From assembly GCA_034430155.1 (NCBI GenBank), contig DAOUET010000001.1, positions 342-64,341 on the forward strand: a stretch of DNA of 64,000 bases. Reading direction: 5' to 3'. This document shows positions 27,906 to 45,556 of this stretch, one piece after another (the stretch's first letter is position 1; every line of letters begins with the position of its first letter). A model generated the notes under the pieces. That model was not told the DNA's origin, did no database searches, and was given only the letters and a program-made list of their open reading frames with translations. Position numbers and translations under genes: made by a program. Source of the DNA: Anaerolineales bacterium. GTDB taxonomy: Bacteria > Chloroflexota > Anaerolineae > Anaerolineales > UBA4823.

Positions 27906-28039
27906 AGTTTGAATTGGTAGGAGGAAACGGGGAAGGATTGCGGTTAGGTACCGTAGAGAGGCATGGTTAGCAGAGGGGAAAATATCCGGAATGATTGATT
28001 CACAACCAGAAGAATAACAGGAGAATTAAGTAAGAACGT

Positions 28040-28075
28040 CAGAGAGCAGGCAGCTGATTTGCCACCTGCTCTCTG
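28040..28075. terminator. Stem-loop between convergent genes
   Basis: CAGAGAGCAGG / CCTGCTCTCTG, an 11-bp perfect stem with a 14-nt loop and no strong U-tract. Confidence 0.4.
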
Positions 28076-28094
28076 AGCGGTTGGTACATCACGA

Positions 28095-30869
28095 TTATCT
28101 CGAAACTGCTAGCTTAACTAAGTTCCCCTGATCATCGAGGGTAATACGGGCAAAGTGTTGGTGCAGGTGAAATATTTCCGTTTGAGCAGCACTCAGCGTA
28201 TCAGGGTCTGACTGGTCGATGGCTGAGGCTCCTCTTACGGGCACTTGGATTTGTTTGCTCAAGGTAATCACGCTGCGGTTGGGTTTGCGAAGAGGTAGAG
28301 ATTTCGCGCCAAATTGGGATGTCGGGCAATTGTGATCGCCACCTTTACAACCGGCATGCTCCTGACTGCATAGTATCTTGGCGTCGGTCATGCCAGGCAG
28401 ATATTGTTCCACCAGCTGTTTGATCTGACCTAATTTCTCGTCGGACAAGGTGGATGGAGATTGGAACGAGTGATTTTCGCCCTCTACACGATCGCAAATC
28501 GTTCGGATGCGAGCTGGTCGGTGTGTGGAGCGGTAAACTTGGTTTGATCGAACGTCATTTTCCTTGGTTTGGACAAGAGGGTCGCCATAAAGGACAAAAG
28601 AAATCAAGGTCTTTTGATCTTCTCCGTCTAAATATCCCTGGCGACGGAGCATTTCGCGAGCTGTATAGATTTTAGCGCGCCTGAGAGCTTCACCAGCCGG
28701 CAGGGCTTCCCGCAAATATTTCCAAAATGTCTGACCAAGCAGGTCAGCGGCGATGAGAGGAGAGCTGATGGAGCCATAAGACGTGCAGGTCGACCCGACC
28801 ACGACTTGTGCTCCGGAGGAAAGGAATTTTAGCGAAAGGGCTTTTTCGACGGTTTTGTTCAAGATATGGGCACCATAGCAGGCTTCTGTAAAGATTACCT
28901 GAGGCGCACGCCCACCATTGATCACGTCTCGAGGGCGTAAAGCCACTGGATAATCCGGGTCGTTTCCTGGTTCGGTTGGGTCGCGTTGACCATACCATTC
29001 ACTGGCATCCTGCAAGCCATGTAGGTTGAAGTAACCCAGGCGGGCTGATGGTAAAAGATCGTTCTTCTGCGTCCGACCGGGGTGACCGGTGACCTGTACG
29101 GGGGGAGACACCAACATAGCATGGGGTTGCCCGATAGGGCGGAAGACTGAAAGCGAAGCCCGCCGCCAGACTGCCGCGGTATATCCCCAACTAGGACGAG
29201 AGCGGCGAATTGATAATCCTGAAAAAAGCTTCTTCAACCATCGAATCAGCCAGGATCTTGGAGGTAAGATGTTTTGATGGCGAGAGGTGATATCACGCAG
29301 CATACGCAGGAGGGGTTCAGCGTTATACTGGGCGCCACCTGGCAAGCGACCGACAGTCCATTCGGGGATGAAATAATTTTCATCCGAGGATGCGTAGGGG
29401 TTGTCTGAAGGCACATCGATATCAGCATCGTCAACCGGATTCGGCAAGTGATGGAACGGCACCACCTCCGGACCGCCAACGATCAACACAGCCCCAATCA
29501 TTTCACCCTTTCTCGCCAGGGCAGCGTCCAGATCAGCCAAGGTCAGTTTGAGCTCCCAGGCATCATCCGGACGGGCAGGCACCAGTCCAAAAGCACCTGT
29601 GCTGCGGGGGTCATCCGCGTATAGGAGAATTGCTCTCCAATCCGGCCGGGTATCTATGGTTTTTACCAATCGTTTCATCTCGGATTCAATAGCCGTGAAT
29701 TGCCGTCCATAGTGGGTTTCCAAGCCTTTTTTGGTCGTAAATAGCACATAAACCGGGAAACGTCCGTCGGAGTGAGCCAGATAGTTATGTTTTAGGCGAC
29801 CTGCCAGACGCTGCAGCTCCTTTTGAACTGAGCGCAATGATTTGGGAATCTTTGGAAGGGGAGGTGAAGGCCGGTGGGATCTCCGAAGAGACGGATGGCT
29901 GCCTCCTTCTGCGGTTTTGGCATTCATGCAGGTGACTTGCGGTTGCTGCCGTTTGGTTGGACGAGTAAGTTCACCAGCCGGGTCACTTTTTGCGATCACT
30001 TCATCTGTATTCGAACTTTCTGGTGTAGTTGAATCTGTATGGGTGGGAGCTTTTCTGCCAGCTGGGAGCTGGTTCCATCCCAAAACGGCAGCAACATCAG
30101 CGGGGATGGGTATTTCCCAAATGACCTTCAGATCAGACGGCCAGAGTCTAATGTACCGGTGATCTTGACCCCAAAGACGAGTGGACACCTGGGCGGTAAT
30201 ATCCAATGAGGCTGCCTGGTGTAAAAGAGCCACCGCTTTTTCTGACTCGCCACCTTCCAAGAGCGATTCTGCCAGTATCAATTTACAAACCAAACAACCA
30301 GGCCAGCGTTCGTGGTAAAGTTCTGCAAGATCCCTCAGGGCAAATCCGGGCAGGTTTCTCCGGGCACTTATCTGCAAGTGGGTAACGGCGATTATGGGGG
30401 TTATTTGTGCTTCGATCAAGGTTTGGTGAATATATTCTTCGGCTGTCTCCAAAATGCCATCTACAAGTGCCTTACGGGCGGCGTAGAGAGCACTAGCCCA
30501 GTAGGGTTTGGGTTCACCGGGATAAAGATTATCCCCTATGGCAAATAGTTGAGCTTTGGCGTCAGCGATGTTTGGTGAACCGGTCAGGTCATAAACTTGC
30601 AGAAGTAACTTTTGAGCTTCGATATCCTCTGGGTCAGCCAGTAAAAGCTCTTCTAAGACTTGTCTGGCTTGATTTACAGCGCCGGATTGGATCAGGGAGC
30701 GGGCGTGCAGCCCTCGAACTGGTAAATCTCCGGGATAATAAGCCAACCATGCTAATGCAACCCGACGGGCAAAGCGGTCAGCACCGACAGAAAGGGCAGT
30801 ACGCATCAAAACCAAGAAATCGGAACGAGAGACGTATTGTCTAGGAGAGATCATAGTAACAGCACTCAT
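28095..30869 (-). CDS. TPR-like N-terminal domain + clan-CD cysteine peptidase (gingipain C25 / caspase-like) protein
   Basis: 924 aa. The N-terminal ~230 aa are helical-repeat. The middle is a Pro/Ser/basic linker. The C-terminal half has the C25-type block VLIVGGPEVVPFH...DVPSDNPYAS...EWTVGRLPG. The catalytic-type His sits in YFNLHGL (codon 29019-29021) and the Cys in VIFTEACYG (codon 28878-28880). Its ATG overlaps the upstream gene's stop (ATGA). Confidence 0.65.
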   Translation of the reverse strand: MSAVTMISPRQYVSRSDFLVLMRTALSVGADRFARRVALAWLAYYPGDLPVRGLHARSLIQSGAVNQARQVLEELLLADPEDIEAQKLLLQVYDLTGSPNIADAKAQLFAIGDNLYPGEPKPYWASALYAARKALVDGILETAEEYIHQTLIEAQITPIIAVTHLQISARRNLPGFALRDLAELYHERWPGCLVCKLILAESLLEGGESEKAVALLHQAASLDITAQVSTRLWGQDHRYIRLWPSDLKVIWEIPIPADVAAVLGWNQLPAGRKAPTHTDSTTPESSNTDEVIAKSDPAGELTRPTKRQQPQVTCMNAKTAEGGSHPSLRRSHRPSPPLPKIPKSLRSVQKELQRLAGRLKHNYLAHSDGRFPVYVLFTTKKGLETHYGRQFTAIESEMKRLVKTIDTRPDWRAILLYADDPRSTGAFGLVPARPDDAWELKLTLADLDAALARKGEMIGAVLIVGGPEVVPFHHLPNPVDDADIDVPSDNPYASSDENYFIPEWTVGRLPGGAQYNAEPLLRMLRDITSRHQNILPPRSWLIRWLKKLFSGLSIRRSRPSWGYTAAVWRRASLSVFRPIGQPHAMLVSPPVQVTGHPGRTQKNDLLPSARLGYFNLHGLQDASEWYGQRDPTEPGNDPDYPVALRPRDVINGGRAPQVIFTEACYGAHILNKTVEKALSLKFLSSGAQVVVGSTCTSYGSISSPLIAADLLGQTFWKYLREALPAGEALRRAKIYTAREMLRRQGYLDGEDQKTLISFVLYGDPLVQTKENDVRSNQVYRSTHRPARIRTICDRVEGENHSFQSPSTLSDEKLGQIKQLVEQYLPGMTDAKILCSQEHAGCKGGDHNCPTSQFGAKSLPLRKPNRSVITLSKQIQVPVRGASAIDQSDPDTLSAAQTEIFHLHQHFARITLDDQGNLVKLAVSR

Positions 30870-33800
30870 GATGACACATTTATAGATATGGGGCGGCGGT
30901 TGTGGACTAGGTTGAGAGCAACAATAGCTCCTAGCTGGCGGTGGATTGTTAAATCCTCCGGAGCCAAGTCAGCGGCTCTACGCAGCATATCCTCAGCCGC
31001 CTGGTAGTCACGGATTTCTTTTAGCACAAGGCCAGATTGATAATAGGCACGCGGGTCTTTAGGGGCGATGGATATGGCCTGGTGGTAGGTATTCAGGGCG
31101 AGATCGTACTGGCGTCGTTCTTGATAGGCTGAGCCTAATTCGAGATAGGGCTTGAGGTCCTCGGTAAGCAGCTGGATGGCTTCGCTTAGGTGGTGTATGG
31201 CCTGGTCAAGTTGGCCAGATTGATGAAGCAAGCTACCTAATAAGTAATGGGCGTGTCCCTGAACATCGGGATCCAAGGCGCTGCTCTTGCCGTGCAAGGC
31301 TCGTTGAGCTGCATGGATTGCAGCCTCCCTTTGTCCGGCAGCCGCCAACGCAGTCGCTAATGGGGCGAGTATTGCTGGTTCATCCGGATAATCCTCGGCA
31401 AGATCTTGCAGGGCAGCAAAGGCAGCTTGAGAACCCTGACTTTTTTCAAGAAAATCTACCCGTTCGACCAACAATGGCAGTGGGTCGGAAGAATTCTTAA
31501 TGGCTTGTTCCACCGTTGAAAGGGCATCACTATAGCGTTCAAGACCATCCAGGGCACGAGCCAGATAGTGCAAAGCCTCGGGATCATCAGGTTTAATTTT
31601 AAGAGCCGCTTGAGCCCGCTGGTAAGCACCTCTGGGGTCAGCGGCCTTCAAAGCAACCTCACAACGAAGGAGGAGAGGATCTATCTTATCGGGCTCTAGG
31701 GAAATGGCGTTTTCGACAAGCAAAGCTGCCTTAGCGATATCGCCCTCGGCAATATAAACCTTAGCTAAGGCCATATAAATCTCATAATCCCGGGGCGCAA
31801 GTCGTTGAGCGCCTTCAAGTACCTGAAGTGCACGATCAAGATCACCAGCCTGCATAAGGGCTTCCCCCAAAATGAGATGATGGGTGACATTTTCAGGCTC
31901 CAATTCCGCGGCTTGTTCCAAGTGGGTGATGGCAGCGATGGGGTCACCGGTTTCAAGGTGCAATTGTGCTGCCTGGCTATGCCAACGCGGTTCGTTAGGC
32001 CAGAAGGATAAGGCTGTTTGAAGGGCTTTGAGCGCACTGGGATAATCACCAGTTCGGTGGGCTATGTCAGCATAAAGCACGTGATAAAGCGGTTGATTGG
32101 GTTCCTTATCGACAGCTGATTTGGATTTATTTTTCGCTTCCAGGATATCCTCCTGGCGGCGTCCACGGTAGCCTAATGAGAGGGCTTGCTGGATGAGGAC
32201 ATTGGCATTATATGAGTAAGGATTAGATCTATGAATATCGGTATCAATAGCAAGAGGCGTCTCTGCAAAATCACCTAATTCACGTGCTGTCGCGATACGA
32301 GCCGCGATATCATCGGGTTGAGATGAAAGCGCATCCAAGGCGTGGAGATTTTCTGGGTTAGGCTGAAAAACTGCTTCACCACGTGCTCTCCAACGCTGAA
32401 TCATCAAAGGGAGATTTACCTGTTCATACTGATGTGAAACTGGAAAGCACTCAGTAGCTTTACGCATGCATTCATCGAACGATTGATAAGTTCGTTGGGT
32501 TAATGAAACGGGTCCAGGTGCGTGTTTAATAACATCTGCTGTTTCGCATATGCGTTGATATTCGCCGCGTAAAACCAAGGTACGTGCTAGCTGGAGATGG
32601 CTATAGGGTTCTGAGGGAGCAAGGTTGATAGCTCTGCGCAGGAGGTATAAAGCCATATCCCACTGAGAGAGATCAAGGGCCGCGGCAGCCAGGGCATTTA
32701 GATCTTGAATTTCTGCATAAAGAGCAATTAATGATGAAGTCGGAGAATCGGTCTTGAATGAAATAGCGTGAGGTTCATCACCACTCTCGCTTTGGTCAAT
32801 GTTAAGGGACCCTGCGCTTGCCTCAAAATTCTCCAATCCCAATTTGAGGGTCTCAAAGGCCGTGGGGTTATCACCCCGTGGCTGGGTAAGCCGAGCTTGT
32901 AAAGCGATAATGCGAGGGTGGTTGGGATCAATGCCGATAGCTTTGGTCAGTGCCTCCGCAGCAGCAATCTCCTCACCCTCATCCAGAGCCAATTCAGCGG
33001 AAAGAGCGTAGTAAAGGAAAGCAGCAGTATCCTGTGGGTCATTATTCTCATCCGGTTTAGCATCTGCATAGGAATTTTGATCGCCTGATATGATTTCGCT
33101 CAAAAACCTGCGAGCTTTACCAGGCTGTAGTAAAGCGCGAGACAAGTCTCCAGCGAATGCGCGTGCCAGAAATGCATTCGAACTACCTGTCGTCTGGCTG
33201 CAAGAAGAAACCATTTGTTCAGCGTGAGAAAGGGCCTCAATAAGATCTCCACTAGACCTCAGGATCAGAGCAAGTCTGTGGTGTAAGGTGAGATCGCTGG
33301 GGTTATCCTGTAAGGCATGCTCCAAGGCAGCTTGAGCTGCCTGGGGACGATCCAAATAAAGCAGTAGATCAGCCTTAGAGATATGCAAAGCAGAATCTTG
33401 CGGATTGAGTGTAATGGCACGATTGATAGCTTCCAGGGCACTGTCGTGCTCTCCAGCGTACTTATAGGCAATCGAAAGATCATGAAGCATGCTCGCATCT
33501 GGCTCTGGAAGCAGATTAAGCGCCCGTTCCAGGCATGCGATCGCGCCAGAGGTATCGTTCAGGTTAAGCAATCCCTGGGCAGCTTGTGATAAATCTCCTG
33601 TTTGCGTATGTTCAGAAGAGAGCACTTGATGAAAAGCCTTACGGGCGGCGGTGGTGTCCCCGGTTTGAGTCTGGATGGAGGCCAGCTGCACCAATAAGCT
33701 CGTATCGGCAGGGTTGAGTTGTACGGCGCGACCGAGAGCCTGGAGCGCCTGTGAGTGAGCATCGAGCAGCAGGGCATGCTTCGCGAACCAGGAAAGCGTT

Positions 33801-36490
33801 TCAATATCATCGGGAGCCAGATGGATGGCGTTTTGGGCTGCTGCCAAGGCTTCCTTTGGCAATTGTAGTTTGAGGTACGCCTCAGCCATCAAGCGTTGAA
33901 TATCGGAGTTCTTTGGGTCCAGAAGGGCGCTTTCTTGCAAGATTGCGATGGCAACTTCAGGTTTTTCCAGAGCGAGGGCGGTGCGACCCAAGCCTGTAGC
34001 CAAACGGTTGTGCCAGAATGGGTCGTTGACCAAATCACTATCGAATACATTGAAATAGGATTGCAGAGCGGGGAGCAGCTCGCCATTAGCTGCCATGGCT
34101 TCAGCCAGATATGCTTGACCTAAGGTATTTTCAGGGGAAAGAGTCAAGGCATGACGGGCAGCTTGCAGAGCTTCTTCTGGATGGTCCCCGGTTTCTAAGA
34201 GTGCGAAGGCGTAATCCAGGTGCGGGAAGGGATCGGTCGGTTGTGTCTGCATTGCGACGACTAACGGGGAGATGGCTGCATTAGGTTCATTGAGAGCCAG
34301 TAAGGATTTTGCATAAGCGTGGGCGAGTCCTGGATATGCGGGATTGGTCTGGTAGGCTTCCGCTAAGATTTTGCGCGCCTCGTTCAAATGACCAAGTTCA
34401 TGCAAAGTCTCTCCTAATCGGGTTGCGATATGGGCAGATTGATCCTGATGAGCTAATAAGCTTCGCTCCCCAGGAAGGCCCTTGGCGTTCTTTTTAAGAA
34501 GCGGTGCTAGGGTATGAGGGCGCGAGGCTTGATAAGCCTGCTGTAAGCTGTGTAACGCCTGGGTTGGGGCATTCTGCCTTAGATATATTTCTGCAAGTTC
34601 CAGGTGAACAAGGGGATCGCTGGCGACGGCATGAGTAGCTGATCGCAGGGTGTCGATAGCTTTATCTAAATGACCTGCTCGCTGGTGGGCGTGCGCCAGT
34701 GCCAACCAAGGGGTAGATTGGTAAGGCGTGAATTGGGTAGCTTGTTGGAGATGGTCAAAGGCAGCTTGAGTGTCTCCAAGCGCTTCTAATGCCTCGCCAA
34801 AAGCTGTATGAGCTAAACCATCGGCTGGGCTTTCCCGCAGGATTTGCTGGCAAATGTCTGCAGCGCGCTGAGGTTCACCAGCATGTAAAGCACAGGTAGC
34901 CAGAGCATAATAATGATCATAAGAGGGCCAGGGTAAATCTGGGCTGGGGGTAAAACGCTTTTCCAGTAATTGGGTGCGTTCTTTGAGAGCGTCAGACCAA
35001 TTCCCATTCATCTCGAGGTATTCAACCAGGACAAAGCGCAAGTCGGTGCGCTGAGGGGAAAGCGTAACCGCCATTTGCGCAGCTTCTACGGCAGCGGAAA
35101 GATCCCTAGAGATACGAAACAAGTTTGCCATGGAAGCGTAAAGATCGGGGTCATTGGGCTGTGAGGCGACGGCAAAATGAGCAGCCTTAATAGCTTCATT
35201 AGGCAAACCCAGATCAGCGAATAAATTCATGAGATTGCGGCTAAGACCAGCAGCAACAGAAGCGGATAGCCGGCTGTGTTCCTCACCGATAGTCGTGAGG
35301 GGCTTAACCTGTACTTCTAAAATTTTTAAAGCATGTCGAGCGTTTTTACAAGCCTTATCGAAATTTCCTTGCGATACCGCCAACCGGGCGATGGCCAATA
35401 GATAGGCGGCATCATTAGCGCTTTCTTGATCTTCATCAATAGATGGAAATAAGGCAAGGGCATCGGCCGGTTGGTCTGCTTCCAGCAAGGCTAATATTAA
35501 ACCGGGGGGGGGAAAACTCTCAATGGTAGAACCATATCCATTGGTATGCGGGCGTAATTGCTTCCAGGTTGTCAGGGCTGTGTCAATATTCCCATTTCTG
35601 GCGATCGCCTCGGAGATCTGATCAGCGATCTGGGTCTGCAGCCGTTGGCTGGCTTGAAACGCCATAGTCTCCAAGGAGGCCGATTGTGATATCTGTCCGC
35701 CAATGAAGTTGAGATCAGCCTGAGAGATCAGGTGCACAATTTGATCTATTTGTTCAGCATAATTTCTGTATATCTGACGATTAGGTACGGTAGGTCCCTC
35801 ATTGAGGGTCGACAAGGCTATTGTTGAGGCCAATGCTGGATTGGCGCTTTGAAGGATCCTAAGAAATGTTACCAGATCGTTCAATCGTAAGTCACGCAAG
35901 GCTCCTTCAAGAATGTCTACCTGTTTAGAAGGAGGGATGGGGTTACTTAGAAGGGCATGGGTGGCAAGTTTGAGGTTAGTTATGGGAGCATTGGGATAGA
36001 TGAGGGAACGAAGCAGATCGCTTTGATCCTCAGCAAGACCCAATAAGCATGCCAATGGCGTGTACCAATTGGTCAGGTGAGATGCAAACAAGTCTGCGGT
36101 TAATCCATTCCAGGAACCTATCTTTTGGCGGCGTTCTGCCAAAGCGATGGCTAACAAACCTGCATGAGCCAGGGTAAGTTTATCTGGTAATCCAGAGGAA
36201 TCATCATTAAGGAGGGTCTGGTATGTGCGGACAGCGCGTTGGCGCAGTTTTTCTTCCAATTTATCAAATTCAAGGGGATACGGGTAATCCAGATCAATCA
36301 AGGCCAAAACCGCCGGGGACCATGCCTCAGGATTATTGCCGATTTTGCTAATCGCGCCCTTTCTTTTTTCTTCCTCTTGGAGGGTTTCCCAAATGAGGGC
36401 ATCCTGTCTCAAGGCCGCGATAACCCACGACCAGCTGGTTTCAGGTAAAAGTTCCTTTAATTCGACGACAAGGGATGGGGTCACATTCAT
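30866..36490 (-). CDS. Giant tetratricopeptide-repeat (TPR) protein
   Basis: ~1875 aa from ATG 36490; the ORF track extends to 36544 and would overlap the upstream gene. It contains dozens of 34-aa A/L/Y-rich repeats (...A...Y..AL.L.P....A...LG..), with no other recognisable domain. Confidence 0.8.
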   Translation of the reverse strand: MNVTPSLVVELKELLPETSWSWVIAALRQDALIWETLQEEEKRKGAISKIGNNPEAWSPAVLALIDLDYPYPLEFDKLEEKLRQRAVRTYQTLLNDDSSGLPDKLTLAHAGLLAIALAERRQKIGSWNGLTADLFASHLTNWYTPLACLLGLAEDQSDLLRSLIYPNAPITNLKLATHALLSNPIPPSKQVDILEGALRDLRLNDLVTFLRILQSANPALASTIALSTLNEGPTVPNRQIYRNYAEQIDQIVHLISQADLNFIGGQISQSASLETMAFQASQRLQTQIADQISEAIARNGNIDTALTTWKQLRPHTNGYGSTIESFPPPGLILALLEADQPADALALFPSIDEDQESANDAAYLLAIARLAVSQGNFDKACKNARHALKILEVQVKPLTTIGEEHSRLSASVAAGLSRNLMNLFADLGLPNEAIKAAHFAVASQPNDPDLYASMANLFRISRDLSAAVEAAQMAVTLSPQRTDLRFVLVEYLEMNGNWSDALKERTQLLEKRFTPSPDLPWPSYDHYYALATCALHAGEPQRAADICQQILRESPADGLAHTAFGEALEALGDTQAAFDHLQQATQFTPYQSTPWLALAHAHQRAGHLDKAIDTLRSATHAVASDPLVHLELAEIYLRQNAPTQALHSLQQAYQASRPHTLAPLLKKNAKGLPGERSLLAHQDQSAHIATRLGETLHELGHLNEARKILAEAYQTNPAYPGLAHAYAKSLLALNEPNAAISPLVVAMQTQPTDPFPHLDYAFALLETGDHPEEALQAARHALTLSPENTLGQAYLAEAMAANGELLPALQSYFNVFDSDLVNDPFWHNRLATGLGRTALALEKPEVAIAILQESALLDPKNSDIQRLMAEAYLKLQLPKEALAAAQNAIHLAPDDIETLSWFAKHALLLDAHSQALQALGRAVQLNPADTSLLVQLASIQTQTGDTTAARKAFHQVLSSEHTQTGDLSQAAQGLLNLNDTSGAIACLERALNLLPEPDASMLHDLSIAYKYAGEHDSALEAINRAITLNPQDSALHISKADLLLYLDRPQAAQAALEHALQDNPSDLTLHHRLALILRSSGDLIEALSHAEQMVSSCSQTTGSSNAFLARAFAGDLSRALLQPGKARRFLSEIISGDQNSYADAKPDENNDPQDTAAFLYYALSAELALDEGEEIAAAEALTKAIGIDPNHPRIIALQARLTQPRGDNPTAFETLKLGLENFEASAGSLNIDQSESGDEPHAISFKTDSPTSSLIALYAEIQDLNALAAAALDLSQWDMALYLLRRAINLAPSEPYSHLQLARTLVLRGEYQRICETADVIKHAPGPVSLTQRTYQSFDECMRKATECFPVSHQYEQVNLPLMIQRWRARGEAVFQPNPENLHALDALSSQPDDIAARIATARELGDFAETPLAIDTDIHRSNPYSYNANVLIQQALSLGYRGRRQEDILEAKNKSKSAVDKEPNQPLYHVLYADIAHRTGDYPSALKALQTALSFWPNEPRWHSQAAQLHLETGDPIAAITHLEQAAELEPENVTHHLILGEALMQAGDLDRALQVLEGAQRLAPRDYEIYMALAKVYIAEGDIAKAALLVENAISLEPDKIDPLLLRCEVALKAADPRGAYQRAQAALKIKPDDPEALHYLARALDGLERYSDALSTVEQAIKNSSDPLPLLVERVDFLEKSQGSQAAFAALQDLAEDYPDEPAILAPLATALAAAGQREAAIHAAQRALHGKSSALDPDVQGHAHYLLGSLLHQSGQLDQAIHHLSEAIQLLTEDLKPYLELGSAYQERRQYDLALNTYHQAISIAPKDPRAYYQSGLVLKEIRDYQAAEDMLRRAADLAPEDLTIHRQLGAIVALNLVHNRRPISINVSS

Positions 36491-36512
36491 TTTTTCACCA
36501 ATTAGGAATTCA

Positions 36513-36833
36513 CTAGAAACGAAAAACCAACCAGCTGGCCGCAATCATCAGACCAACGCCTAGCAAAGTCAAAAATACTCCGATCCCTGCAGAGGTGCGG
36601 ATCAAATCATTGGTGGCATTGAGCAGGGCGGAGGCATTGCCGACCAGTCCTGCAACCTCTTCTGCCAGACCTTTTTTCACGAGAAGGGAAGTTTGTTTGG
36701 CTATCGAGCGGACCTCCGCTCCCAATGTACGACGAACCAGGATAATCACTCCGATGATGAAAGAGATGATTCCTATGATGAAAAAACCCAGGATGATGCC
36801 CATTTGAAGATCAAGCAAAGTGATGTTAACCAT
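36513..36833 (-). CDS. Small two-TM membrane protein
   Basis: 106 aa with two clear hydrophobic helices flanking an amphipathic segment. It is tightly packed in the operon, with a 10-nt gap upstream and a 22-nt gap downstream. Confidence 0.5.
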   Translation of the reverse strand: MVNITLLDLQMGIILGFFIIGIISFIIGVIILVRRTLGAEVRSIAKQTSLLVKKGLAEEVAGLVGNASALLNATNDLIRTSAGIGVFLTLLGVGLMIAASWLVFRF

Positions 36834-36843
36834 ATGTCACTCC

Positions 36844-37671
36844 TCAAGGTGCTAAAACGCCAATTAGCGGAAATTCACAATCCAGGTGATTTCCGGTTGA
36901 GATGAGTTGGAGCCAGTTTTGAACAGCTTCAGAGACATCCATATCCGTTCGGATGTGATTTGGTACCAATCTTAAGATTTTATTGATATCTGATGATGAC
37001 GATGAGGGCCTGCCTATTTGTTGACAAAGACCTTGAAGCAAGCTGGTCTGCCCCTGGAGGGCTGAGCCTCGATCTACCCAAGGTAGGGGTAGGGCACTAA
37101 TAACTCTATCACCCTCAAAAGAATCTATGCCGCTTCGCAAGCCTCCGAAGAAATTTATGATTTCAATCAATCCGGTCTCGTCTAGTAGGACATAATGGTT
37201 CCACCAAACATCTCCAGAGTGCAGTATTTCGAAGAATTCTTCAGATAGAAGTCCTTGCTGGTTAATCTTCATGATCTGCGTGAAAGAGGTGGATGCAACT
37301 GGATTCTGATCGAAGGGTGTTGGGTAGATCGGAACTAAGTTGAGATGAAATCTACTTGGAAGGTAGATCATTAGCCAGATACTTTCGAGGCGAGGACTTT
37401 GGGATTTGAAATGATCGACGCCAATGAATAAGATATTCTGCTGCGCAGTGGCAGGGCTGGCCTGGAAAGTACTCTCATCCTGAGAAAGGGACTCGTTCCT
37501 TGGGTGGTGAGGATCACCGGCCAGAAGACCAGCGATCAAGCCTAGCAACAGGCATAACCCAAAAACGAAAAGGTAAACGCTCAGCTGCGGGCTTTTCACC
37601 AGGCTAGTAAAGAATGCCCTTATTTGGTTATCAGGTTGGATATGCCAACGCCTGAGAATAAAGTCTTTCAA
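36844..37671 (-). CDS. Membrane-anchored protein with a degenerate LytR/CpsA/Psr-like motif
   Basis: 275 aa with an N-terminal TM anchor. NILFIGVDHFKSQSPRLESIWLMIYLP resembles the LCP-family NILLLG.D....R.DTIML block, but the conserved Arg/Asp positions are partly lost. Confidence 0.45.
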   Translation of the reverse strand: MKDFILRRWHIQPDNQIRAFFTSLVKSPQLSVYLFVFGLCLLLGLIAGLLAGDPHHPRNESLSQDESTFQASPATAQQNILFIGVDHFKSQSPRLESIWLMIYLPSRFHLNLVPIYPTPFDQNPVASTSFTQIMKINQQGLLSEEFFEILHSGDVWWNHYVLLDETGLIEIINFFGGLRSGIDSFEGDRVISALPLPWVDRGSALQGQTSLLQGLCQQIGRPSSSSSDINKILRLVPNHIRTDMDVSEAVQNWLQLISTGNHLDCEFPLIGVLAP

Positions 37672-37681
37672 GGAAAATCCT

Positions 37682-37906
37682 TTAGTGGAGGATTTGTGAA
37701 CCGAATATCCCGATGATGAAACCGAGGAAAAGCCCTGAAAGCGACCAAAACAGTGTCATGCTGCGGGTCAATGACTTGAGACGCGCTTCATAAAGGTCGT
37801 AACTCCATCGGACTAAGCCTTGTACTAGGGAGGACCTACTTAACAACCAAACCGCCAGGTCCCAAAAATTAATTTCTAAGCGGGTCGTAAGGTCTTGAAT
37901 GTTCAA
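37682..37906 (-). CDS. Small C-tail-anchored membrane protein
   Basis: 74 aa with a C-terminal TM helix (LFWSLSGLFLGFIIGIFG). Operon spacing supports the call; I see no recognisable homology. Confidence 0.4.
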   Translation of the reverse strand: MNIQDLTTRLEINFWDLAVWLLSRSSLVQGLVRWSYDLYEARLKSLTRSMTLFWSLSGLFLGFIIGIFGSQILH

Positions 37907-37927
37907 CAGTAATTTCCTTATGACAGA

Positions 37928-38173
37928 TCAACGCGAGGTAGTGATCTTCAGGATCTTGCCGTTTGAGTTTGCGGTCACCCTCACCAAGCGAGGGATATTC
38001 TTCCCGTTTTGAGCTTGAACGGTGCCTTTATATGTGAGCAGATATTTGGTGGGCGCTGATATAGATTTCGCTTGGGAGGTAGGTTGCATGGTGACCTTTG
38101 GTTGGTGACCTGCCAGTTCGGGGAAGCGTTGATAAACCTGGGAGGATATAGATTTAATCAGTTTTGTATCCAT
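37928..38173 (-). CDS. Small soluble protein, unknown function
   Basis: 81 aa, lying 47 nt downstream of ftsZ on the same strand. No motif recognised. Confidence 0.4.
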   Translation of the reverse strand: MDTKLIKSISSQVYQRFPELAGHQPKVTMQPTSQAKSISAPTKYLLTYKGTVQAQNGKNIPRLVRVTANSNGKILKITTSR

Positions 38174-38220
38174 ATTTATTCTGACAAAACGAACCTTTGA
38201 AAATGTGAGGGTGAAAGTAA

Positions 38221-39375
38221 CTAATTTTGGCGAGCCCGGCGACGTAAGAAAGCAGGTATGTCTAGGTTGGTGGATGTGCTTGCCATGACAGGAAGAGGGC
38301 TGGCTTCAACAGCCTGTACCTCAGTTTGAGACCGTGGCCGGGAAACGACTGCATGACGTGGCATCACTTCGTCTAAGGCTGTGCCACCCAAACCTGTGAC
38401 CACAAGAATAACCTGAGCACGGTCGCCCATACATGGATCCTGGATAAAGCCCATGACAATTTCTGTATCAGATTTAGCCTGAGCCTGAAGGTGATTTAGA
38501 GCATCACTCACTTCTAACAAGCTGAGGTCATCTCCCCCGGTAAAGTTGGCGATTATCCCGGCAGCGTTTTCTATGGAAACGGCTTCTAAGAGCGGGTGGT
38601 TTAGCGCTTGTTCGACAGCTTGCAGGGCTTTGCCGTCGCCGTGTCCTTGACCGATGGACATCAACGCTCCCCCGCCCAGTTGCATGAGCCGGCGAATATG
38701 GGCAAAATCAACATTGATCAAGCCAGGCTCGGTAATCAGTTCGGTGACGCCCTGAACAGCCTGCCGTAGAACATCGTCAGCCACGCGAAAAGCTACTTCT
38801 AGAGATAGATCAGTGGGTGCAACGCAAAGCAGGCGATCGTTGGGAATGGAAATGAGTGTGTCGGTTTGAGGTTGCAAGCGCTGTAGACCTTCGCTGGCGT
38901 TCCGTTGGCGACGGCCCATTTCAAAAGAGAAGGGGGTGGTGACAATCGCTATTGTGACGGCGCCTAAACTGCGGGCGATTTTGGCTGCTACCGGTATAGC
39001 GCCAGTGCCTGTACCGCCTCCCATCCCGGCAGTGAGAAAAACCATGCTGGCACCAGCTAATGCAGCTGCCAGTTCTCGGTGGCTTTCCTCGGCTGCTTTA
39101 TATCCGATTTCCGGATTACCGCCTGCCCCCAAACCCCGGGTGACATGTTGACCGAGCTGGATCTTATAGGGGGCGATGCTTGTCTGAAGAGCCTGGTAAT
39201 CGGTATTGGCTGCAATAAATTCAACACCCTGCATACCTAGTTCGATCATACGGTTGACAGCGTTGCAACCACCACCACCCAATCCGATCACCTTCAGGAC
39301 GGGTTGTGGGGTTGATAATGGGGACGAAGAATGTATGTCTCTCATAATTTCCTTCTCTGGATAATGGCGTATCAT
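38221..39375 (-). CDS. ftsZ: Cell division GTPase FtsZ
   Basis: IKVIGLGGGGCNAVNRMI and the tubulin signature GGGTGTGA are present, with the C-terminal peptide DIPAFLRRR. The in-frame ATG at 39345 (MRDIHSS), preceded by AAGGA, is the more likely start. Confidence 0.95.
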   Translation of the reverse strand: MIRHYPEKEIMRDIHSSSPLSTPQPVLKVIGLGGGGCNAVNRMIELGMQGVEFIAANTDYQALQTSIAPYKIQLGQHVTRGLGAGGNPEIGYKAAEESHRELAAALAGASMVFLTAGMGGGTGTGAIPVAAKIARSLGAVTIAIVTTPFSFEMGRRQRNASEGLQRLQPQTDTLISIPNDRLLCVAPTDLSLEVAFRVADDVLRQAVQGVTELITEPGLINVDFAHIRRLMQLGGGALMSIGQGHGDGKALQAVEQALNHPLLEAVSIENAAGIIANFTGGDDLSLLEVSDALNHLQAQAKSDTEIVMGFIQDPCMGDRAQVILVVTGLGGTALDEVMPRHAVVSRPRSQTEVQAVEASPLPVMASTSTNLDIPAFLRRRARQN

Positions 39376-39424
39376 CGGGATATATGCTTCCGGAGTTTCA
39401 AACAGTTTGCTTCAAGATTCCTGT

Positions 39425-39440
39425 TGCAATTCTCATGCCA
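39425..39440 (-). promoter_or_regulatory. Sigma-54 (-24/-12) promoter candidate upstream of ftsZ
   Basis: The minus strand reads AG-TGGCAT-GAGAA-TTGCA-AC. This fits YTGGCACGrNNNTTGCW with a single C-to-T change. The -24 element overlaps the last codons and stop of the upstream gene. It lies 50-80 nt upstream of the candidate ftsZ starts. Confidence 0.6.
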
Positions 39441-40791
39441 CTAAATCAAGGTGTTCAACATCACAACCAGCAGATTCCAGGTTTTTCTTTAATTTTTCTG
39501 AAAATGCTTCTTTTTTCCCGGCAATCGTGACGAGCTTGGCCAGAGCAGCTTCTTCAGTTGAGAAACCAATGGTAGGTTTGTATTTTTTCACATAAGGCTG
39601 GATGGCTTGAAGGTACCAATCGGGGATACCCCACTCGTATGAGGGTAGCAAGAGATAATGGGAAATAGGGTGTTGGGAATGCACTTTTTCATTTGAAATC
39701 AAGTCCTTTGAGTCGCCGGGAGACTGAGGGCGCCTCAGCGAAGATCTCTCTTGGGATTTAGGGGCAACCTGATGGCCGCTGAACCATTGGCGTAAGGTCG
39801 AGACGATAGGGAGCGTGCTGCCATCTGGTTTGTACCAGGCATCTGGCAGATCCGGGCTATGATGATCGGCGGTGATCAACCAAAAATTACCAGCCAGGAC
39901 TTCCTGGGGAACGGTTTCCAGTGGGTCTGCCATGTAAGGCTCGAGCGTGTCTCCGGCCATACGCCTGGCGATGGTTAGGGTCCGCAGGGTCCGGGCAGTA
40001 TCATCGATTGAGTCTGGAGCGCTGTTACCAGGAGAACGCTGGTGGCTGCCGACTCCCAACAAAAGGATCCCCGTTGATCTACCGGTTACAGCTCGAATGA
40101 TGGCAAGGTACCAGTCAAAGATGCGAAAGCCACGCTGATCCTCGCTCCTGGGCGGTGTGAAATATGGCCGGGCACCTGGCCAGCTTTCGGGTCCACCATA
40201 TCCCCAATTTAAAGGTCGTTCACCAGCGCGAGCGTAAGCTGCCAAAACTAGAACCTCAAGCAAATCATGTAAGCCGCGCCGCTTTAATGCCTGGAAAGCT
40301 GCCCGTAAGAAAGCGGTATCCCAATAATCGCCTCCGGGTTCCAATGGTGGAAAAATAGGGATCAATCCAGCTTGCCTGGCTGATTCGGCAAGCGGTACGA
40401 AATGGTCGAGGAATCTCTCGACCAGCTCATTCTGTACCCATCCCCCCATAGGCCAGGCTGTGCGGGTATTCGGGCAATCGAACAGGATAACATAATGGAT
40501 GCCCCAACGTGCGTAGGTGGAAAATAACAACGCCAAATCAGTTTGTGAATGAGGGATTCCCAAAGGCAGATGGAAGTGCAATACCGGTTCGATGTGCGCC
40601 CGGGCTAATCCGCGTAGAAATTGTTCAGGGATGGCGCGATCCGTAGGCGCAACCAGAATTAACCAATTGGCTCCCAGGGCGCGTAATTCAGGCAACCAGG
40701 CGCGCAAATCGCTTTGCCGGAAGTGCTCAGTATCAGGGAAATAATGAAATCCCAAACGGGTGTTATTTTTTGGAGTAGGGAAATTGAGCAT
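39433..40791 (-). CDS. Hypothetical protein, possibly TIM-barrel glycoside-hydrolase-like
   Basis: 452 aa with no signal peptide. The alternating beta/alpha pattern with WVQNELV and FPPLEPGG resembles clan GH-A acid/base and nucleophile positions, but the similarity is weak. The C-terminal ~80 aa form a separate small domain. Confidence 0.6.
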   Translation of the reverse strand: MLNFPTPKNNTRLGFHYFPDTEHFRQSDLRAWLPELRALGANWLILVAPTDRAIPEQFLRGLARAHIEPVLHFHLPLGIPHSQTDLALLFSTYARWGIHYVILFDCPNTRTAWPMGGWVQNELVERFLDHFVPLAESARQAGLIPIFPPLEPGGDYWDTAFLRAAFQALKRRGLHDLLEVLVLAAYARAGERPLNWGYGGPESWPGARPYFTPPRSEDQRGFRIFDWYLAIIRAVTGRSTGILLLGVGSHQRSPGNSAPDSIDDTARTLRTLTIARRMAGDTLEPYMADPLETVPQEVLAGNFWLITADHHSPDLPDAWYKPDGSTLPIVSTLRQWFSGHQVAPKSQERSSLRRPQSPGDSKDLISNEKVHSQHPISHYLLLPSYEWGIPDWYLQAIQPYVKKYKPTIGFSTEEAALAKLVTIAGKKEAFSEKLKKNLESAGCDVEHLDLVA

Positions 40792-40814
40792 TCATTCTCT
40801 CCTGGCAGTAATGG

Positions 40815-40830
40815 TGCAAGAGGTATGCCA
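40815..40830 (-). promoter_or_regulatory. Sigma-54 (-24/-12) promoter candidate upstream of the 452-aa gene
   Basis: The minus strand reads CC-TGGCAT-ACCTC-TTGCA-CC, in the 71-nt gap after the activator gene. It is followed by a GGAGAG RBS and the ATG at 40791. Confidence 0.55.
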
Positions 40831-40862
40831 GGAAAGATGAAGCAAGGTAGCCGGTTGGATTT

Positions 40863-42046: not shown

Positions 42047-43999
42047 CTAGGTCTCGTTTCGTTCAGCGGCCGGGAAGCGGGCTTGAAAGACCGTTCCTCC
42101 AGGTACGCTGGCAACTTCGATAGTACCCTTGTGAGCAGTGATAATGCGTTTGGCTATCGCCAGACCCAGACCGGTGCCTTCACTATTTGTAGTGAAGAAG
42201 GGCTCAAAAATGTGCTCGCGAATGTCTTCCGGGATACCTGGACCGTTATCCGCTACACTGACCTCGATATGCCGGCGTTCTCCTGGCCGGGTGATCGAAC
42301 GCAAGTGCACGGTGAGCATACCACCTTTTTCTCCCATAGCCTGGATAGCGTTACTGATCAGATTAGTAAAAACCTGTTCCAAGGCGCGAGAATCGCCGAT
42401 TACGAGGGGATTTTTGGCGGTGACGGTAAGTTTATGCTCTATGTTTACGCGTGCCATCCTGGGACGCCAACGTTCTAGTAAGCGGTGAACCAACAAACCG
42501 AGATCAACTTTATCCATCCTGGATTGGGATGGATGCGAGAAGGATAAAACGGATTGCATCAAATGAGCCAGGCGTTCGCAATCGGTTCCTAAACGAGCGA
42601 TGATCTCTTGATTGGGATCATCTTCGGGTAAATTGTAAGCGATGAGTTGAAGGCCAGTGCTGATATTATTGATCGGGTTTCGCACTTCGTGGGCAAAAAT
42701 TGCGGTGATTTCGCCTAGAAGGGCGCGTTGTTCTAACTGTTGGTTACGAACCTGATATTGTTCGCGCTCGCTTAAATCTCGGAGAAGGAGGATGGCGCGA
42801 TGAAATTTGTCTTTGTAAAAGACTGGCAGAATGCGGATGAGGGCCAGAAAAGCGCCCCCATCTCGACGATGTATCCGGACGTTACCTAAATTGTGGGTGG
42901 GTATCCCCTGTTGAGCTGCCTGGAGTGCAGGTATCAGGTTTTCCGCGCCAATGATGACGTTTTCGATCGGTTGACCGTTTACTTCGCGGGTGGCATATCC
43001 AAGAATCCACTCAGCAGAAGGATTCATTTCTATTATTTTTTGATCGGGCCCAATGATGATGACACCTTCCCGCACAGATTCCTTGATGGTATCGGCGAGT
43101 GTAAGACCGATTGATTGTATTTCAATTTGTTCGAACAAGTTGGACGTCAGGGATTTTTGCTGGACGATAGCCATGATTGCGGCTGCTATTATTTGAAGGA
43201 CCGGTAGAATGTTGGTAGTCGGACTTGATGCGGGGTCAGCGATGACGATCAATCCCGAAAATTTTCCAGGTTGGCCGAGGGGCGCTGAAGCCAGGTAGGT
43301 GAATTTTGCCGCTCGAGCTGCTCGCAGTAAACCGCAGGTGGCGCGTTTACCCGGGATCCAGAGGCGGGGATCCAAAATTTGGCTGACATCTGAAGGGGGG
43401 ATGCGTTCAGGCAACTCCGCAGCAGTCCCCCAGTTAGCGATTCGTTTAAGACCCGGTGAGCGAGGGTCGACAACATAGATCGCCAGGATGGCGGCGCCTG
43501 AAAGCGTGTGTCCAGTTTGCAGGGCGGATTGGATGGCCTGTCGAAAGTCGCTTTCCTGGGTGGATAGAATTAATTTGTAGAGAAGGTCTAAAAGTCTGTT
43601 ATGTCGTTGTTTTTCAGCTTGTTGTAAGCGATGAAGCTGCTCTTGCTCCAGGACGACCAGAGCGATCGAGCTTGGGGAGTTGAGGCGGTTTAAAGTTAAG
43701 AACACCTCAACTTTTGTGCCTCGGCGGGCATTAATACTGGTTGTGAAACTTGTGATCGCATTTCCTATGCCTTGAGGGTGATCCATCACCCCCAAAGCTG
43801 GTATCAAGGAGTCCAGGTTGAGATCTATCAATTCGCTCCGTGTAAAAGAAGTCAGTTCGGTAGCTTGGGCATTCGCAAGCAGTATCTCGTTTCCCTGCAA
43901 ATCGACGAGCAAAGCTGCCTGAGGGAAAACGTCGAGAAAACTCTCAATCTCAGTAAGGGACAGCTGCCGACGCCGTAAAAATGACAATGAGGGGAGCAT
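42047..43999 (-). CDS. Cytoplasmic PAS/GAF/PAS sensor histidine kinase
   Basis: 650 aa with no TM segments. H-box [12 protein letters not shown], plus N, G1 and G2 boxes ([26 protein letters not shown]). The gaps to both neighbours are 8-11 nt. Confidence 0.9.
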
Positions 44000-44010: not shown

Positions 44011-45438
44011 CTATGCGGGTTTAGGGGATTCCTTAACCTGACGAAGATGGGATGGCAGGATACCTTCCATGGATCTGTATTTTGCTACCGTACGTCTGGC
44101 GACGTGAAAACCCTGCTCGTTGAGCAGACTGACAATTTCATTGTCGCTTAGAGGTTTTTTTTCGTTGTCGATGATCTCTTTGATCACGCTGCGTATATGG
44201 AGACTGCGATCGAAGAATTTTGAGAGCGGGATAATGTGTCCATTGGGCAGCTGTGCAGCTTTGCTGGAAACTGCTCGTGAAATGGTTGATTCGTGAACAT
44301 CCAGCTCCTCCGCCAATTTGGCCCGGGTGTAAGGACGAAGGTAACAATCACCATGAAGGATAAATTCACGTTGTAATTTGGTGATCCGGCGCATCAAGCG
44401 TACCATAGTATTGGCGCGTTGTTGAATACACTTTACCAGCAAATCTGCACGTTCCAAATCCGATTTCCACTGTTCGACTTTATCGGCAGGAGCTTGCCCG
44501 AGCGCCTGGCGGAAGAGTGGGTTGACTTGAAGCAACCCCAGGAAGGGTGAAACGATTTCCACGACCAGGGGGGCATTAGCGTTGCCCTGGAGTAAAGAGA
44601 TGATCACATCCGGATTATTGTAAACTCTCGGGCTTTCGGCGGTCCCTTGACGGATATCGCCCCAATAAGCACGCCCCGGATATGGATTCAAGTTGTCGCT
44701 GATAAAACGGGCAATCTCCCTAACCTTACGGCTGGATATCCCTAGTAAACGACCTAGTTCGGTATATTGGTGACGGCTGAGTAATTCAAGCCCTGATTTG
44801 ATGGCTTCATCTGCCAGTGGAGGCACGGGGAAATTTTCTGCCAGCAATTCCAATTGTACCAATAAGGCTTCCCGGGGGGAGGAGGAGCCAACACCTACAG
44901 GATCCGCCCGCTGGATAATGTTCAGGATTTTCTCAACCTTCCCAAGCGAAACGTGGTGGTATCGGGCGACTTCCAGAGGGGTGGTGTCCAGCAAACCATC
45001 CTCATCTAAATTGGTAAGCAGATGAGCAGCCAGGCGGCGGTCATCTGGATCAAGATCTGGGGCGATCTGGCGTAATACAAAAGTAGGTAGTTCCTCTTTT
45101 GCAGGTGTAAGGTTTTCCCCGGAGAACTCTTCAGCCGAAGATCTTCTGGATACATAAAAATCCTGGCGAGGAGAAACGAATATGATCGGTTCTTCCATGG
45201 AAAGTGATTTTGGTGTGCTGCAGCGTGGGCAGGGTTGCGAACCGATCAGAGGGCGATGGCAGGTGGGACAACGACGCTCCTCTCTTAACTCTAATGCTGG
45301 ATTTTGTGACAGTTCTGTTTCGATTTTTTGATTTAGTTCAACCGCAGTAAGTTCGAGAAGCGACATGGTTTGAGCCAGGTGCGCGGTGGTGAGCGGACGT
45401 AATGTAGTTGCTGGACGGAGGATCTGAACTTGTAACAT
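44011..45438 (-). CDS. rpoN: RNA polymerase sigma-54 factor with a Zn-ribbon insertion
   Basis: 475 aa. Region I (LTTAHLAQTMSLLELTAVELNQKIETELSQNPALE) and a C-terminal HTH plus RpoN box (ARRTVAKYR). CPTC-x9-CPRC occurs at residues 57-73. Confidence 0.9.
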   Translation of the reverse strand: MLQVQILRPATTLRPLTTAHLAQTMSLLELTAVELNQKIETELSQNPALELREERRCPTCHRPLIGSQPCPRCSTPKSLSMEEPIIFVSPRQDFYVSRRSSAEEFSGENLTPAKEELPTFVLRQIAPDLDPDDRRLAAHLLTNLDEDGLLDTTPLEVARYHHVSLGKVEKILNIIQRADPVGVGSSSPREALLVQLELLAENFPVPPLADEAIKSGLELLSRHQYTELGRLLGISSRKVREIARFISDNLNPYPGRAYWGDIRQGTAESPRVYNNPDVIISLLQGNANAPLVVEIVSPFLGLLQVNPLFRQALGQAPADKVEQWKSDLERADLLVKCIQQRANTMVRLMRRITKLQREFILHGDCYLRPYTRAKLAEELDVHESTISRAVSSKAAQLPNGHIIPLSKFFDRSLHIRSVIKEIIDNEKKPLSDNEIVSLLNEQGFHVARRTVAKYRSMEGILPSHLRQVKESPKPA

Positions 45439-45540
45439 AATGATGAAATCCTTTGATGCTGCTTATCAAAATGAAGGAATCTTAAAATTGAGAATTAAAC
45501 TCATGGAATTTTCTTCTCAGTAGAGACATATACACTCGTT

Positions 45541-45556
45541 GCAAGTTCCGTGCCAG
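45541..45556 (-). promoter_or_regulatory. Sigma-54 (-24/-12) promoter upstream of rpoN
   Basis: The minus strand reads C-TGGCAC-GGAAC-TTGCA-A, a perfect match to TGGCACG-N4-TTGCW. It lies ~100 nt upstream of the rpoN ATG. Confidence 0.7.

Follow-up and report, generated by a model that had tools for sequence, protein, structure and literature searches.

What is a clan-CD peptidase doing in the same apparent transcription unit as ftsZ? The question is raised by a stretch of 64,000 nucleotides (nt) from an Anaerolineales bacterium (GenBank assembly GCA_034430155.1, contig DAOUET010000001.1, positions 342 to 64,341 of the forward strand), which we call the window. On its minus strand, downstream of ftsZ, the gene for a giant protein built of tetratricopeptide repeats (TPR) overlaps the gene for a peptidase of 924 amino acids (aa) that carries TPR of its own. 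An initial annotation took these two genes for a translationally coupled pair at the distal end of the ftsZ transcription unit. The explanation that we favour, and to which as a whole we give a probability of about 0.5, is that they are the last two genes of a three-gene module conserved in Anaerolineales, which would supply a scaffold and a protease.

The TPR-peptidase junction and the conserved three-gene module

The minus-strand sequence bears out the overlap described in the initial annotation. The open reading frame (ORF) of the giant protein (30866-36544, minus strand) codes for 1892 aa from a TTG codon, or for 1875 aa from the ATG at 36493; that of the peptidase (28095-30869, minus strand) codes for 924 aa from an ATG. 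The junction between them reads ...ataaatgtgtcatcATGAgtgct, in which the TGA of the TPR gene and the ATG of the peptidase gene share the four nucleotides ATGA, and the same overlap of stop and start codons is legible in the junction string ...aatgtgtcatcATGAgtgct. A further ATG in the same frame, 15 nt downstream (Met6), would give a peptidase of 919 aa. The database version of the protein (P0001, 919 aa) and its 78%-identical relative both start at Met6, both candidate ATGs are kept in this closest relative, and the N-termini of the peptidase homologs are too variable for choosing between the two start codons.

Overlaps of 4 nt are frequent in bacterial operons and are unremarkable alone. What exceeds chance at this locus is the conserved adjacency of the TPR and peptidase genes, rather than the overlap: ATGA occurs at 19 of the 71 TPR-peptidase junctions that could be scored, and at most of the other scorable junctions the first in-frame start codon stands within ~70 nt of the TPR stop. 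The overlap and the conserved close spacing together support the tight coupling of the two genes that had been proposed from this one genome. The further proposal of ‘stoichiometric synthesis’, on the other hand, over-reads an overlap that is found in only about a quarter of the orthologous loci.

Relatives of the peptidase are present in 425 species (one genome per species was scanned), and the best 80 loci were kept for locus counts; 79 of these are labelled Anaerolineales, Anaerolineae or Chloroflexota, and the other is titled ‘uncultured bacterium’. Two of the loci, L058 (Leptolinea) and L075 (Anaerolinea), suggest that the module is also present in cultured Anaerolineaceae. The peptidase gene is directly preceded by a giant TPR gene (1461-2042 aa) in 75 of the 80 loci; in L012, L014, L044, L048 and L063 the peptidase match begins within ~200 bases of the contig end, leaving the TPR gene out of view. 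Directly upstream of the TPR gene stands an ortholog of a 106-aa protein, in every locus that reaches that far (57/57). Peptidase and TPR similarity are, moreover, correlated across loci (Spearman rho 0.71). The three-gene synteny is therefore strict and the divergence of scaffold and peptidase goes hand in hand; the giant TPR protein is an obligate partner of the peptidase, and the 106-aa protein its small membrane partner. The pair recognised in the initial annotation is thus real, but the conserved unit consists of three genes. As for the extent of the family, the catalytic and C-terminal part of the peptidase retrieved 425 clusters (50% clustering) at E <= 1e-30, and in most of the family members listed the matched region starts near residue 300-400. 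We also looked for fusions of scaffold and peptidase, and found none among the listed members (545-1122 aa).

Only TPR-type Pfam models match the giant protein, from about residue 450 to its end, and its N-terminal ~430 aa match no Pfam model shown; its most conserved part is the C-terminal ~125 aa. In the 106-aa protein, the hydrophobic segments occupy residues 1-41 and 77-106. No hydrophobic transmembrane-like segment was found in the giant protein or in the peptidase (no dedicated signal-peptide predictor was run on either), and because of this both proteins are probably cytoplasmic.

Catalytic and C-terminal domains of the peptidase

The initial annotation described the peptidase as a caspase-like enzyme of clan CD and named His617 and Cys664 as its candidate catalytic residues. 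Searched against Pfam and NCBIfam, the window protein returned its N-terminal TPR only, with no match to C25, CHAT or C14; a C25 match was obtained in its orthologs. Thirteen of 26 orthologs (~50% identity) match Pfam Peptidase_C25 (PF01364) at E up to 1, the best at 3.9e-14, and in 5 of 10 tested orthologs the score is 37-53 bits, against a curated threshold of 23 bits, with one match spanning profile positions 68-372. The CHAT profile (PF12770, curated threshold 24 bits) is matched below threshold by 10 of the 26 orthologs at E up to 1 (best 0.002; 18 bits in the ortholog P0024, where the CHAT match overlaps a stronger C25 match). We accordingly rejected membership of CHAT: the window protein has no match, its orthologs stay below 24 bits, and C25 is the stronger of the two. 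Membership of C14 was rejected as well, this family being absent from the Pfam matches listed and no caspase or metacaspase standing among the 50 fold matches listed.

The fold of the C-terminal half was assessed with AlphaFold2 (AF2). A first model, of the full-length protein with 26 sequences, gave a predicted local distance difference test score (pLDDT) below 50 in the catalytic region and was unusable; a second one, restricted to residues 341-924 and built from 120 sequences, was used instead (pLDDT 72.8, predicted template modelling score 0.68). Compared with the Protein Data Bank (PDB) by Foldseek, this second model matches best gingipain R/RgpB (1cvr; E 1.4e-7, 448 columns, probability 1.0), followed by RgpB (4ief) and Kgp (6i9a, 4rbm), with E of 1.5e-7 to 2.6e-6 over 459-464 columns and again a probability of 1.0. 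Human separase (9hvy, 9hma, 9hn5; E 4e-4 to 7e-4, 417-464 columns) and the TPR-CHAT protease Csx29 (8eex_B, 7y9x_B; E 4e-4 to 8e-4, 169-183 columns) come after these, the best of them at E 3.9e-4, and a SAVED-CHAT protein (8tl0_C) aligns over 466 columns at E 4.1e-3. All nine matches at E <= 1e-3 are clan-CD proteases, the top four being RgpB and Kgp, so that the clan-CD fold proposed for this half of the protein is what the structural comparison returned. By its fold, and by the Pfam scores of its orthologs, the peptidase belongs near family C25.

The conservation of individual residues can be read from two alignments, of 26 and of 120 homologs; the search behind them found >1100 proteins, the best 120 at 47-78% identity, and the few that bear organism names come from metagenome-assembled genomes of Anaerolineales or Chloroflexota. 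His617, in ‘YFNLHG’, and Cys664, in ‘VIFTEACYG’ (consensus ‘F-x-EAC-x-G’), are invariant in both alignments, and in the larger set so are all five of His617, Gly618, Glu662, Ala663 and Cys664. Invariant in the smaller alignment (A1) are also D480, D481, D483, D489 and Y492, most of them in the 120-sequence set too. In the model, strands 611-614 and 658-661 directly precede the histidine and the cysteine, which is the context of a clan-CD dyad. Of the initial description, then, the clan-CD fold and the two residues stand, and the closest family is gingipain-like C25, not CHAT or C14.

Another observation to emerge from these comparisons concerns the C-terminal domain of the peptidase, ~115 aa in length, and the small protein that is encoded directly after ftsZ. 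Aligned by hhalign, this 81-aa protein and the C-terminal domain correspond end-to-end (probability 91%, E 1e-6, 80 columns). In reciprocal hidden Markov model (HMM) searches of 13,574 ORFs, the matches outside each family were almost only to the other family, with best E of 0.002-0.003. BLASTP of the 81-aa protein against the peptidase found nothing, the homology being visible only in the profile-profile comparison and the reciprocal HMM searches. Both families end in ...(T/V)SR, and all 120 aligned peptidases have the terminal Arg. Judged by these profiles, the 81-aa protein is a stand-alone copy of the C-terminal domain of the peptidase. An ortholog of it follows ftsZ in 27 species loci and in most of the Anaerolineales-type ftsZ loci from metagenomes.

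The C-terminal region of the peptidase also holds a conserved set of residues, C792, C841, H846 and C848 (‘C-x-G-x-G-H-x-C-P-T-S’; window 28098-28500, residues ~790-924). Across 26 homologs, C841 and C848 never vary, and conservation of H846 reaches at least 90%; C792 is conserved as well. This pattern of Cys and His residues suggests a metal-binding site, and the loop that carries it is absent from the 81-aa paralog.

Sigma-54 motifs and linkage to ftsZ

On the minus strand the genes run in the order 166-aa ORF, rpoN, PAS histidine kinase, REC-AAA+ activator, 452-aa gene and ftsZ, and then, after ftsZ, the 81-aa, 74-aa, 275-aa and 106-aa (two-transmembrane) ORFs, the giant TPR gene and the peptidase gene (Table 1). 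From ftsZ to the peptidase the successive gaps are 47, 21, 10, 10 and 19 nt, the last junction being the 4-nt overlap. The window was scanned for the sigma-54 -24/-12 consensus TGGCAC-N5-TTGCW (core GG-N10-GC), counting mismatches. Five matches with one mismatch or fewer were found in the 64 kb, and four of these lie on the minus strand within the ftsZ/rpoN cluster; the four are intergenic and suggest a local sigma-54 regulon that would include ftsZ and rpoN itself. The motif TGGCATGAGAATTGCA, upstream of ftsZ, is the presumed promoter of the ftsZ-to-peptidase unit, and none of the short gaps from ftsZ to the peptidase gene contains a -24/-12 motif. Past the peptidase stop, a terminator-like hairpin has the longest stem among the terminator-like candidates of 27700-46500, and likely marks the end of the transcription unit; we only infer its function as a terminator, because the tail is not T-rich. 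The distal position that had been claimed for the pair thus finds support in the short gaps, in a motif before ftsZ with none between, and in the hairpin that follows, and the pair is indeed co-oriented with ftsZ and with small membrane proteins. The fifth motif, TGGGACCGGGCTTGCT (62437-62452, plus strand, one mismatch or fewer), is found near the 5' end of an ORF at 62346-63938.

The same motif recurs across species. It stands before ftsZ, with one mismatch or fewer, in all 18 species loci whose upstream sequence is long enough, and before the 106-aa gene, with two mismatches or fewer, in 32 of 55 loci, including all 25 that have no ftsZ upstream. The background in random 265-nt windows is 0.6% at one mismatch or fewer and 4.3% at two or fewer. 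A GGCAC-N5-TTGCA block is conserved across species in both upstream alignments (A4, upstream of ftsZ, and A5), and upstream of the 106-aa gene no other stretch is conserved ahead of the ribosome-binding site and the ATG. As far as consensus matching can tell, a sigma-54 -24/-12 motif always precedes the module, either its own or that of ftsZ.

Fifty-four species loci have a full 10 kb upstream of the module. An ftsZ block occupies this upstream context in 29 of them, and in six rpoN, the kinase and the activator stand directly before the 106-aa gene; the remaining 19 have neither ftsZ nor rpoN within the 10 kb. In those six of the ‘neither’ loci whose upstream ORFs were listed, the adjoining ORF is on the opposite strand. 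(Matches in tblastn to NtrC and kinase downstream of the peptidase, at some unlinked loci, are to generic receiver and kinase domains at 27-36% identity; these are not orthologs and were left uncounted.) The linkage to ftsZ or to sigma-54 genes that the initial annotation anticipated is accordingly seen in 35 of 54 loci, and the module has a motif of its own in 25 of the 25 loci that have no ftsZ upstream. Three gene orders recur: ftsZ followed by the module; rpoN, kinase and activator followed by the module; and the module followed by ftsZ. Two loci, L095 (453-11071) and L104 (436-11362), have activator, motif, 106-aa gene, TPR gene, peptidase gene, 452-aa gene and ftsZ in succession, and in both the sole motif with one mismatch or fewer on that strand stands before the module.

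A second survey was centred on ftsZ and covered 80 metagenome loci. Where ftsZ is flanked by orthologs of the 452-aa or 81-aa protein, the motif is present in 17 of 23 scorable loci, and it is found at L086, L090, L096 and L097 even though there is no module within 10 kb downstream; at the other ftsZ loci of the survey it occurs in only 1 of ~55. In this sample of ftsZ regions the motif match is restricted to the one lineage. By the survey and the motifs, ftsZ and the module therefore belong to a single unit, in which either may come first, or to separate units with a common promoter type. These sigma-54 promoter motifs, which do not figure in the initial annotation, are the strongest link of the pair to ftsZ.

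Of the accessory genes, the 275-aa ORF has orthologs in 24 of the 80 species loci, and every one of the 24 has ftsZ upstream. The position just before ftsZ, here that of the 452-aa gene, is often held by ftsA. In the activator no DNA-binding domain was detected, and its orthologs are likewise 391 aa long; the gap to the next gene is only 71 nt.

Table 1. Coordinates of the peptidase, its partners and the ftsZ/rpoN cluster in the window
Feature	Position	Strand	Remarks
Terminator-like hairpin	28039..28076	-	16-bp stem, 9 G-C pairs; 19 nt past peptidase stop
TPR-C25 peptidase gene	28095..30869	-	924 aa (919 aa if Met6 start)
Peptidase residues 805-924, C-terminal alpha/beta domain	28098..28457	-	Conserved Cys/His; ends ...VSR-COOH
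Peptidase residues 343-766, clan-CD gingipain-like (C25) catalytic domain	28572..29843	-	Foldseek, orthologs' PF01364, invariant dyad
Cys664 codon	28878-28880	-	Codon checked
His617 codon	29019-29021	-	Codon checked
Peptidase residues 266-342, Pro/Ser/Thr/basic-rich linker, predicted disordered	29844..30074	-	pLDDT <50; indel-rich columns, variable length
Peptidase residues 1-265, N-terminal TPR, ~13 helices	30075..30869	-	Pfam TPR_19, TPR_14; AF2 pLDDT mostly 85-96
Giant all-TPR protein	30866..36493	-	1875 aa from ATG
106-aa protein, two predicted transmembrane helices around conserved ~40-aa loop	36513..36833	-	First module gene
275-aa protein, N-terminal transmembrane segment, no family match	36844..37671	-	Accessory
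74-aa protein, C-terminal transmembrane segment	37682..37906	-	Accessory
81-aa soluble protein directly after ftsZ	37928..38173	-	Homolog of peptidase C-terminal domain; ends ...TTSR
ftsZ	38221..39375	-	Tubulin and FtsZ_C domains, GGGTGTG motif, C-terminal peptide DIPAFLRRR
-24/-12 motif TGGCATGAGAATTGCA	39425..39440	-	49 nt upstream of ftsZ ATG
452-aa protein, no family match	39433..40791	-	Conserved immediately upstream of ftsZ
-24/-12 motif TGGCATACCTCTTGCA	40815..40830	-	23 nt upstream of 452-aa gene
Sigma-54 activator, 391 aa	40863..42038	-	REC, AAA+ sigma-54 interaction domain and lid
PAS-HisKA-HATPase sensor histidine kinase	42047..43999	-	
rpoN (sigma-54)	44011..45438	-	
-24/-12 motif TGGCACGGAACTTGCA	45540..45555	-	Perfect match; 101 nt upstream of rpoN
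-24/-12 motif	46263-46278	-	67 nt upstream of 166-aa gene (45695-46195)

A proposed scaffold-bound protease and its alternatives

We hypothesize that the histidine kinase and the activator turn on sigma-54 transcription of ftsZ and of the module together. The TPR giant would then act as a scaffold, possibly held at the membrane by the two-transmembrane protein, and would dock the peptidase through TPR-TPR contacts or through the invariant ...SR tail of the latter; TPR domains often bind C-terminal tails. So positioned, the peptidase may cleave, to a limited extent and at specific sites, a cytoplasmic protein that is connected with division or with the envelope. Its C-terminal domain might serve for docking or for auto-inhibition, legumain with its capping C-terminal prodomain being the analogue, and the 81-aa stand-alone copy could do likewise in trans. 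The parts of this proposal differ in their standing: the identity of the module and its co-regulation with ftsZ through sigma-54 are, from the evidence of sequence, highly probable; an active protease on the scaffold is rather likely; and a substrate linked to division is put forward only tentatively.

Several observations weigh against the proposal. The window peptidase has no Pfam C25 match even at E <= 10 on its C-terminal 576 aa, sequence-profile searches of the PDB with full-length and catalytic-domain alignments gave no peptidase match, the pLDDT of the model is ~40-60 in the active-site loops, and the TM-scores to gingipain are 0.37 and 0.48 (0.34-0.48 across matches). The promoter motifs are consensus matches and not mapped transcription starts. 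In the 19 of 54 loci mentioned above no ftsZ or rpoN gene lies in the 10 kb upstream, and peptidase and FtsZ similarity are uncorrelated across loci. Moreover, if sigma-54 governs many envelope genes in these bacteria, control that is shared with ftsZ need not mean a shared process; and membrane tethering, docking by the C-terminal tail and auto-inhibition are analogies.

The main alternative accepts the complex and its sigma-54 control, and assigns both to a general programme of envelope, stress or differentiation (for example of the cell exterior, or of sheath or filament remodelling), in which case the adjacency of ftsZ would reflect a small regulon shared around rpoN. The 19 loci in which the module forms a sigma-54 operon of its own, with a divergent upstream gene in the six whose upstream ORFs were listed, speak for this, as do the other sigma-54 motifs of the window, which precede the 452-aa and 166-aa genes of unknown function; sigma-54 regulons reportedly often concern the cell exterior. 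Since, on the other hand, linkage to ftsZ recurs in two orders, with ftsZ before the module and with the module before ftsZ, and the 81-aa gene next to ftsZ has a domain in common with the peptidase, we regard such a non-division programme as unlikely, if by no means far-fetched. A bolder version of the division-linked proposal would have a dedicated sigma-54 switch, made up of the sensor kinase and the activator, fire ftsZ together with a separase-like machine: a membrane-tethered scaffold would carry the protease, regulated cleavage of a protein of division, of the septum or of the chromosome would determine when cells separate or filaments fragment in these multicellular bacteria, and the 81-aa protein would be a securin-like trans-inhibitor or a decoy. 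We consider this chain of events quite improbable.

Two further readings concern the enzyme itself. Were the peptidase domain catalytically dead, or used for binding only, the two proteins would form a TPR assembly with a structural role only; in sequence the domain is indeed no more than weakly similar to characterised C25 enzymes, with the window protein itself unmatched in Pfam, and the model is of low confidence in the loops near the active site. Yet the five residues His617, Gly618, Glu662, Ala663 and Cys664 remain invariant across 120 homologs, acidic and aromatic residues such as D480, D481, D483, D489 and Y492 are invariant in the 26-sequence alignment and for the most part in the larger set too, and a dead enzyme is very unlikely because such residues would be expected to be lost without activity. 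Even less probable, in our estimation, is a defence or conflict effector in the manner of TPR-CHAT (Craspase) or of the caspase-like death effectors of multicellular bacteria, which on activation by a sensor would cleave host proteins and bring about abortive infection. The combination of TPR with a clan-CD protease does recall Csx29, and both Csx29 and SAVED-CHAT are among the fold matches. Against this, PADLOC gave no match for the peptidase or for five other neighbours, and a generic TPR match only for the giant protein; no CRISPR, NTPase or nuclease partners were seen; and the neighbours are of housekeeping type (ftsZ, rpoN). Three recurring gene orders in the 54 full-flank loci, 40-55% identity among members and a spread over 425 species genomes fit a conserved core gene set and not a variable defence island.

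How does the proposed scaffold-protease module compare with systems already described? The closest structures are those of the gingipains RgpB and Kgp of Porphyromonas gingivalis (MEROPS C25, clan CD; 1cvr, 4ief, 6i9a and 4rbm, ~450 columns each), which likewise have a His/Cys dyad in HG and AC contexts after beta-strands, and whose Pfam family, Peptidase_C25, is also above threshold in orthologs of the window protein. A conserved ‘GG.E..P......SDNPY....E..VGR.P’ stretch resembles, by eye, a motif of the gingipain catalytic domain. The structural alignments show a sequence identity of only 11-13%. Gingipains are proteases that act in virulence and are secreted, and they have a prodomain at the N-terminus, an Ig-like domain and a C-terminal domain for type IX secretion; the window peptidase, in contrast, has no hydrophobic transmembrane-like segment and is apparently cytoplasmic, and it has an N-terminal TPR region, a different C-terminal domain and a giant TPR partner.

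Csx29, of the type III-E CRISPR system (Craspase), shares with the window peptidase the fusion of TPR to a clan-CD protease, and its activity is controlled by a large partner. It belongs to the CHAT family, however, whereas the window peptidase is C25-like, and only ~170-180 columns align; in the window there is no Cas7-11 or CRISPR context and no match to a defence model, and the partner is a TPR scaffold. Separase (C50, clan CD) combines a very large helical-repeat region with a C-terminal protease and is tied to the cell cycle. Its fold matches (9hvy and 9hma, probability 0.99) are at the level of the fold, and weaker than those of the gingipains. It is a single eukaryotic polypeptide that cleaves cohesin under the control of securin and Cdk, whereas here most of the repeat mass is a separate gene product, and we know of no cohesin-like substrate for the window peptidase. 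Thus, the peptidase resembles Csx29 and separase in joining helical repeats to a clan-CD protease, but is a member of neither.

On the regulatory side, the nearest counterparts are FlgR of Helicobacter and CtcC of Chlamydia, which have no DNA-binding domain and act without enhancer binding; in the window, too, an activator with no DNA-binding domain detected is clustered with rpoN, a kinase and apparent target promoters. The FlgR and CtcC systems control flagellar or late developmental genes, whereas the motif-bearing targets in the window are ftsZ and the TPR-protease module. If confirmed, a sigma-54-dependent ftsZ with such an activator would be unusual, and would make division conditional on a two-component signal.

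The known roles of C25 and other clan-CD proteases are those of secreted virulence factors, of eukaryotic proteases in the cell cycle or in cell death, and of CRISPR effectors. An order-wide C25-like protease of cytoplasmic appearance, with a TPR partner of ~1900 aa and with the promoter type of ftsZ, would be a new setting for this fold. The Anaerolineales are filamentous bacteria, for the most part uncultured, that abound in sludge, sediments and soils, and the module hints that their cell cycle or their filaments are under a level of control yet to be explored. We know of no earlier description of the module; what is new here is the sigma-54 motif before the module, the three gene orders, and the 81-aa copy of the peptidase C-terminal domain.

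Also of interest are the genes on either side. Two adjacent paralogs on the plus strand (24522-26033 and 26220-27905; 503 and 561 aa) converge on the peptidase gene, and beside them lies a 788-aa gene on the minus strand (21667-24033); none of the three has a Pfam match, and the closer relatives share their arrangement (9-11 of 80 loci). Adjoining the sigma-54 cluster on its upstream side, on the minus strand, are genes for a DUF2344 protein (46678-47313) and for a B12-binding radical-SAM protein (47350-49521), and in locus L094 an ortholog of the DUF2344 gene is likewise found upstream of the cluster.

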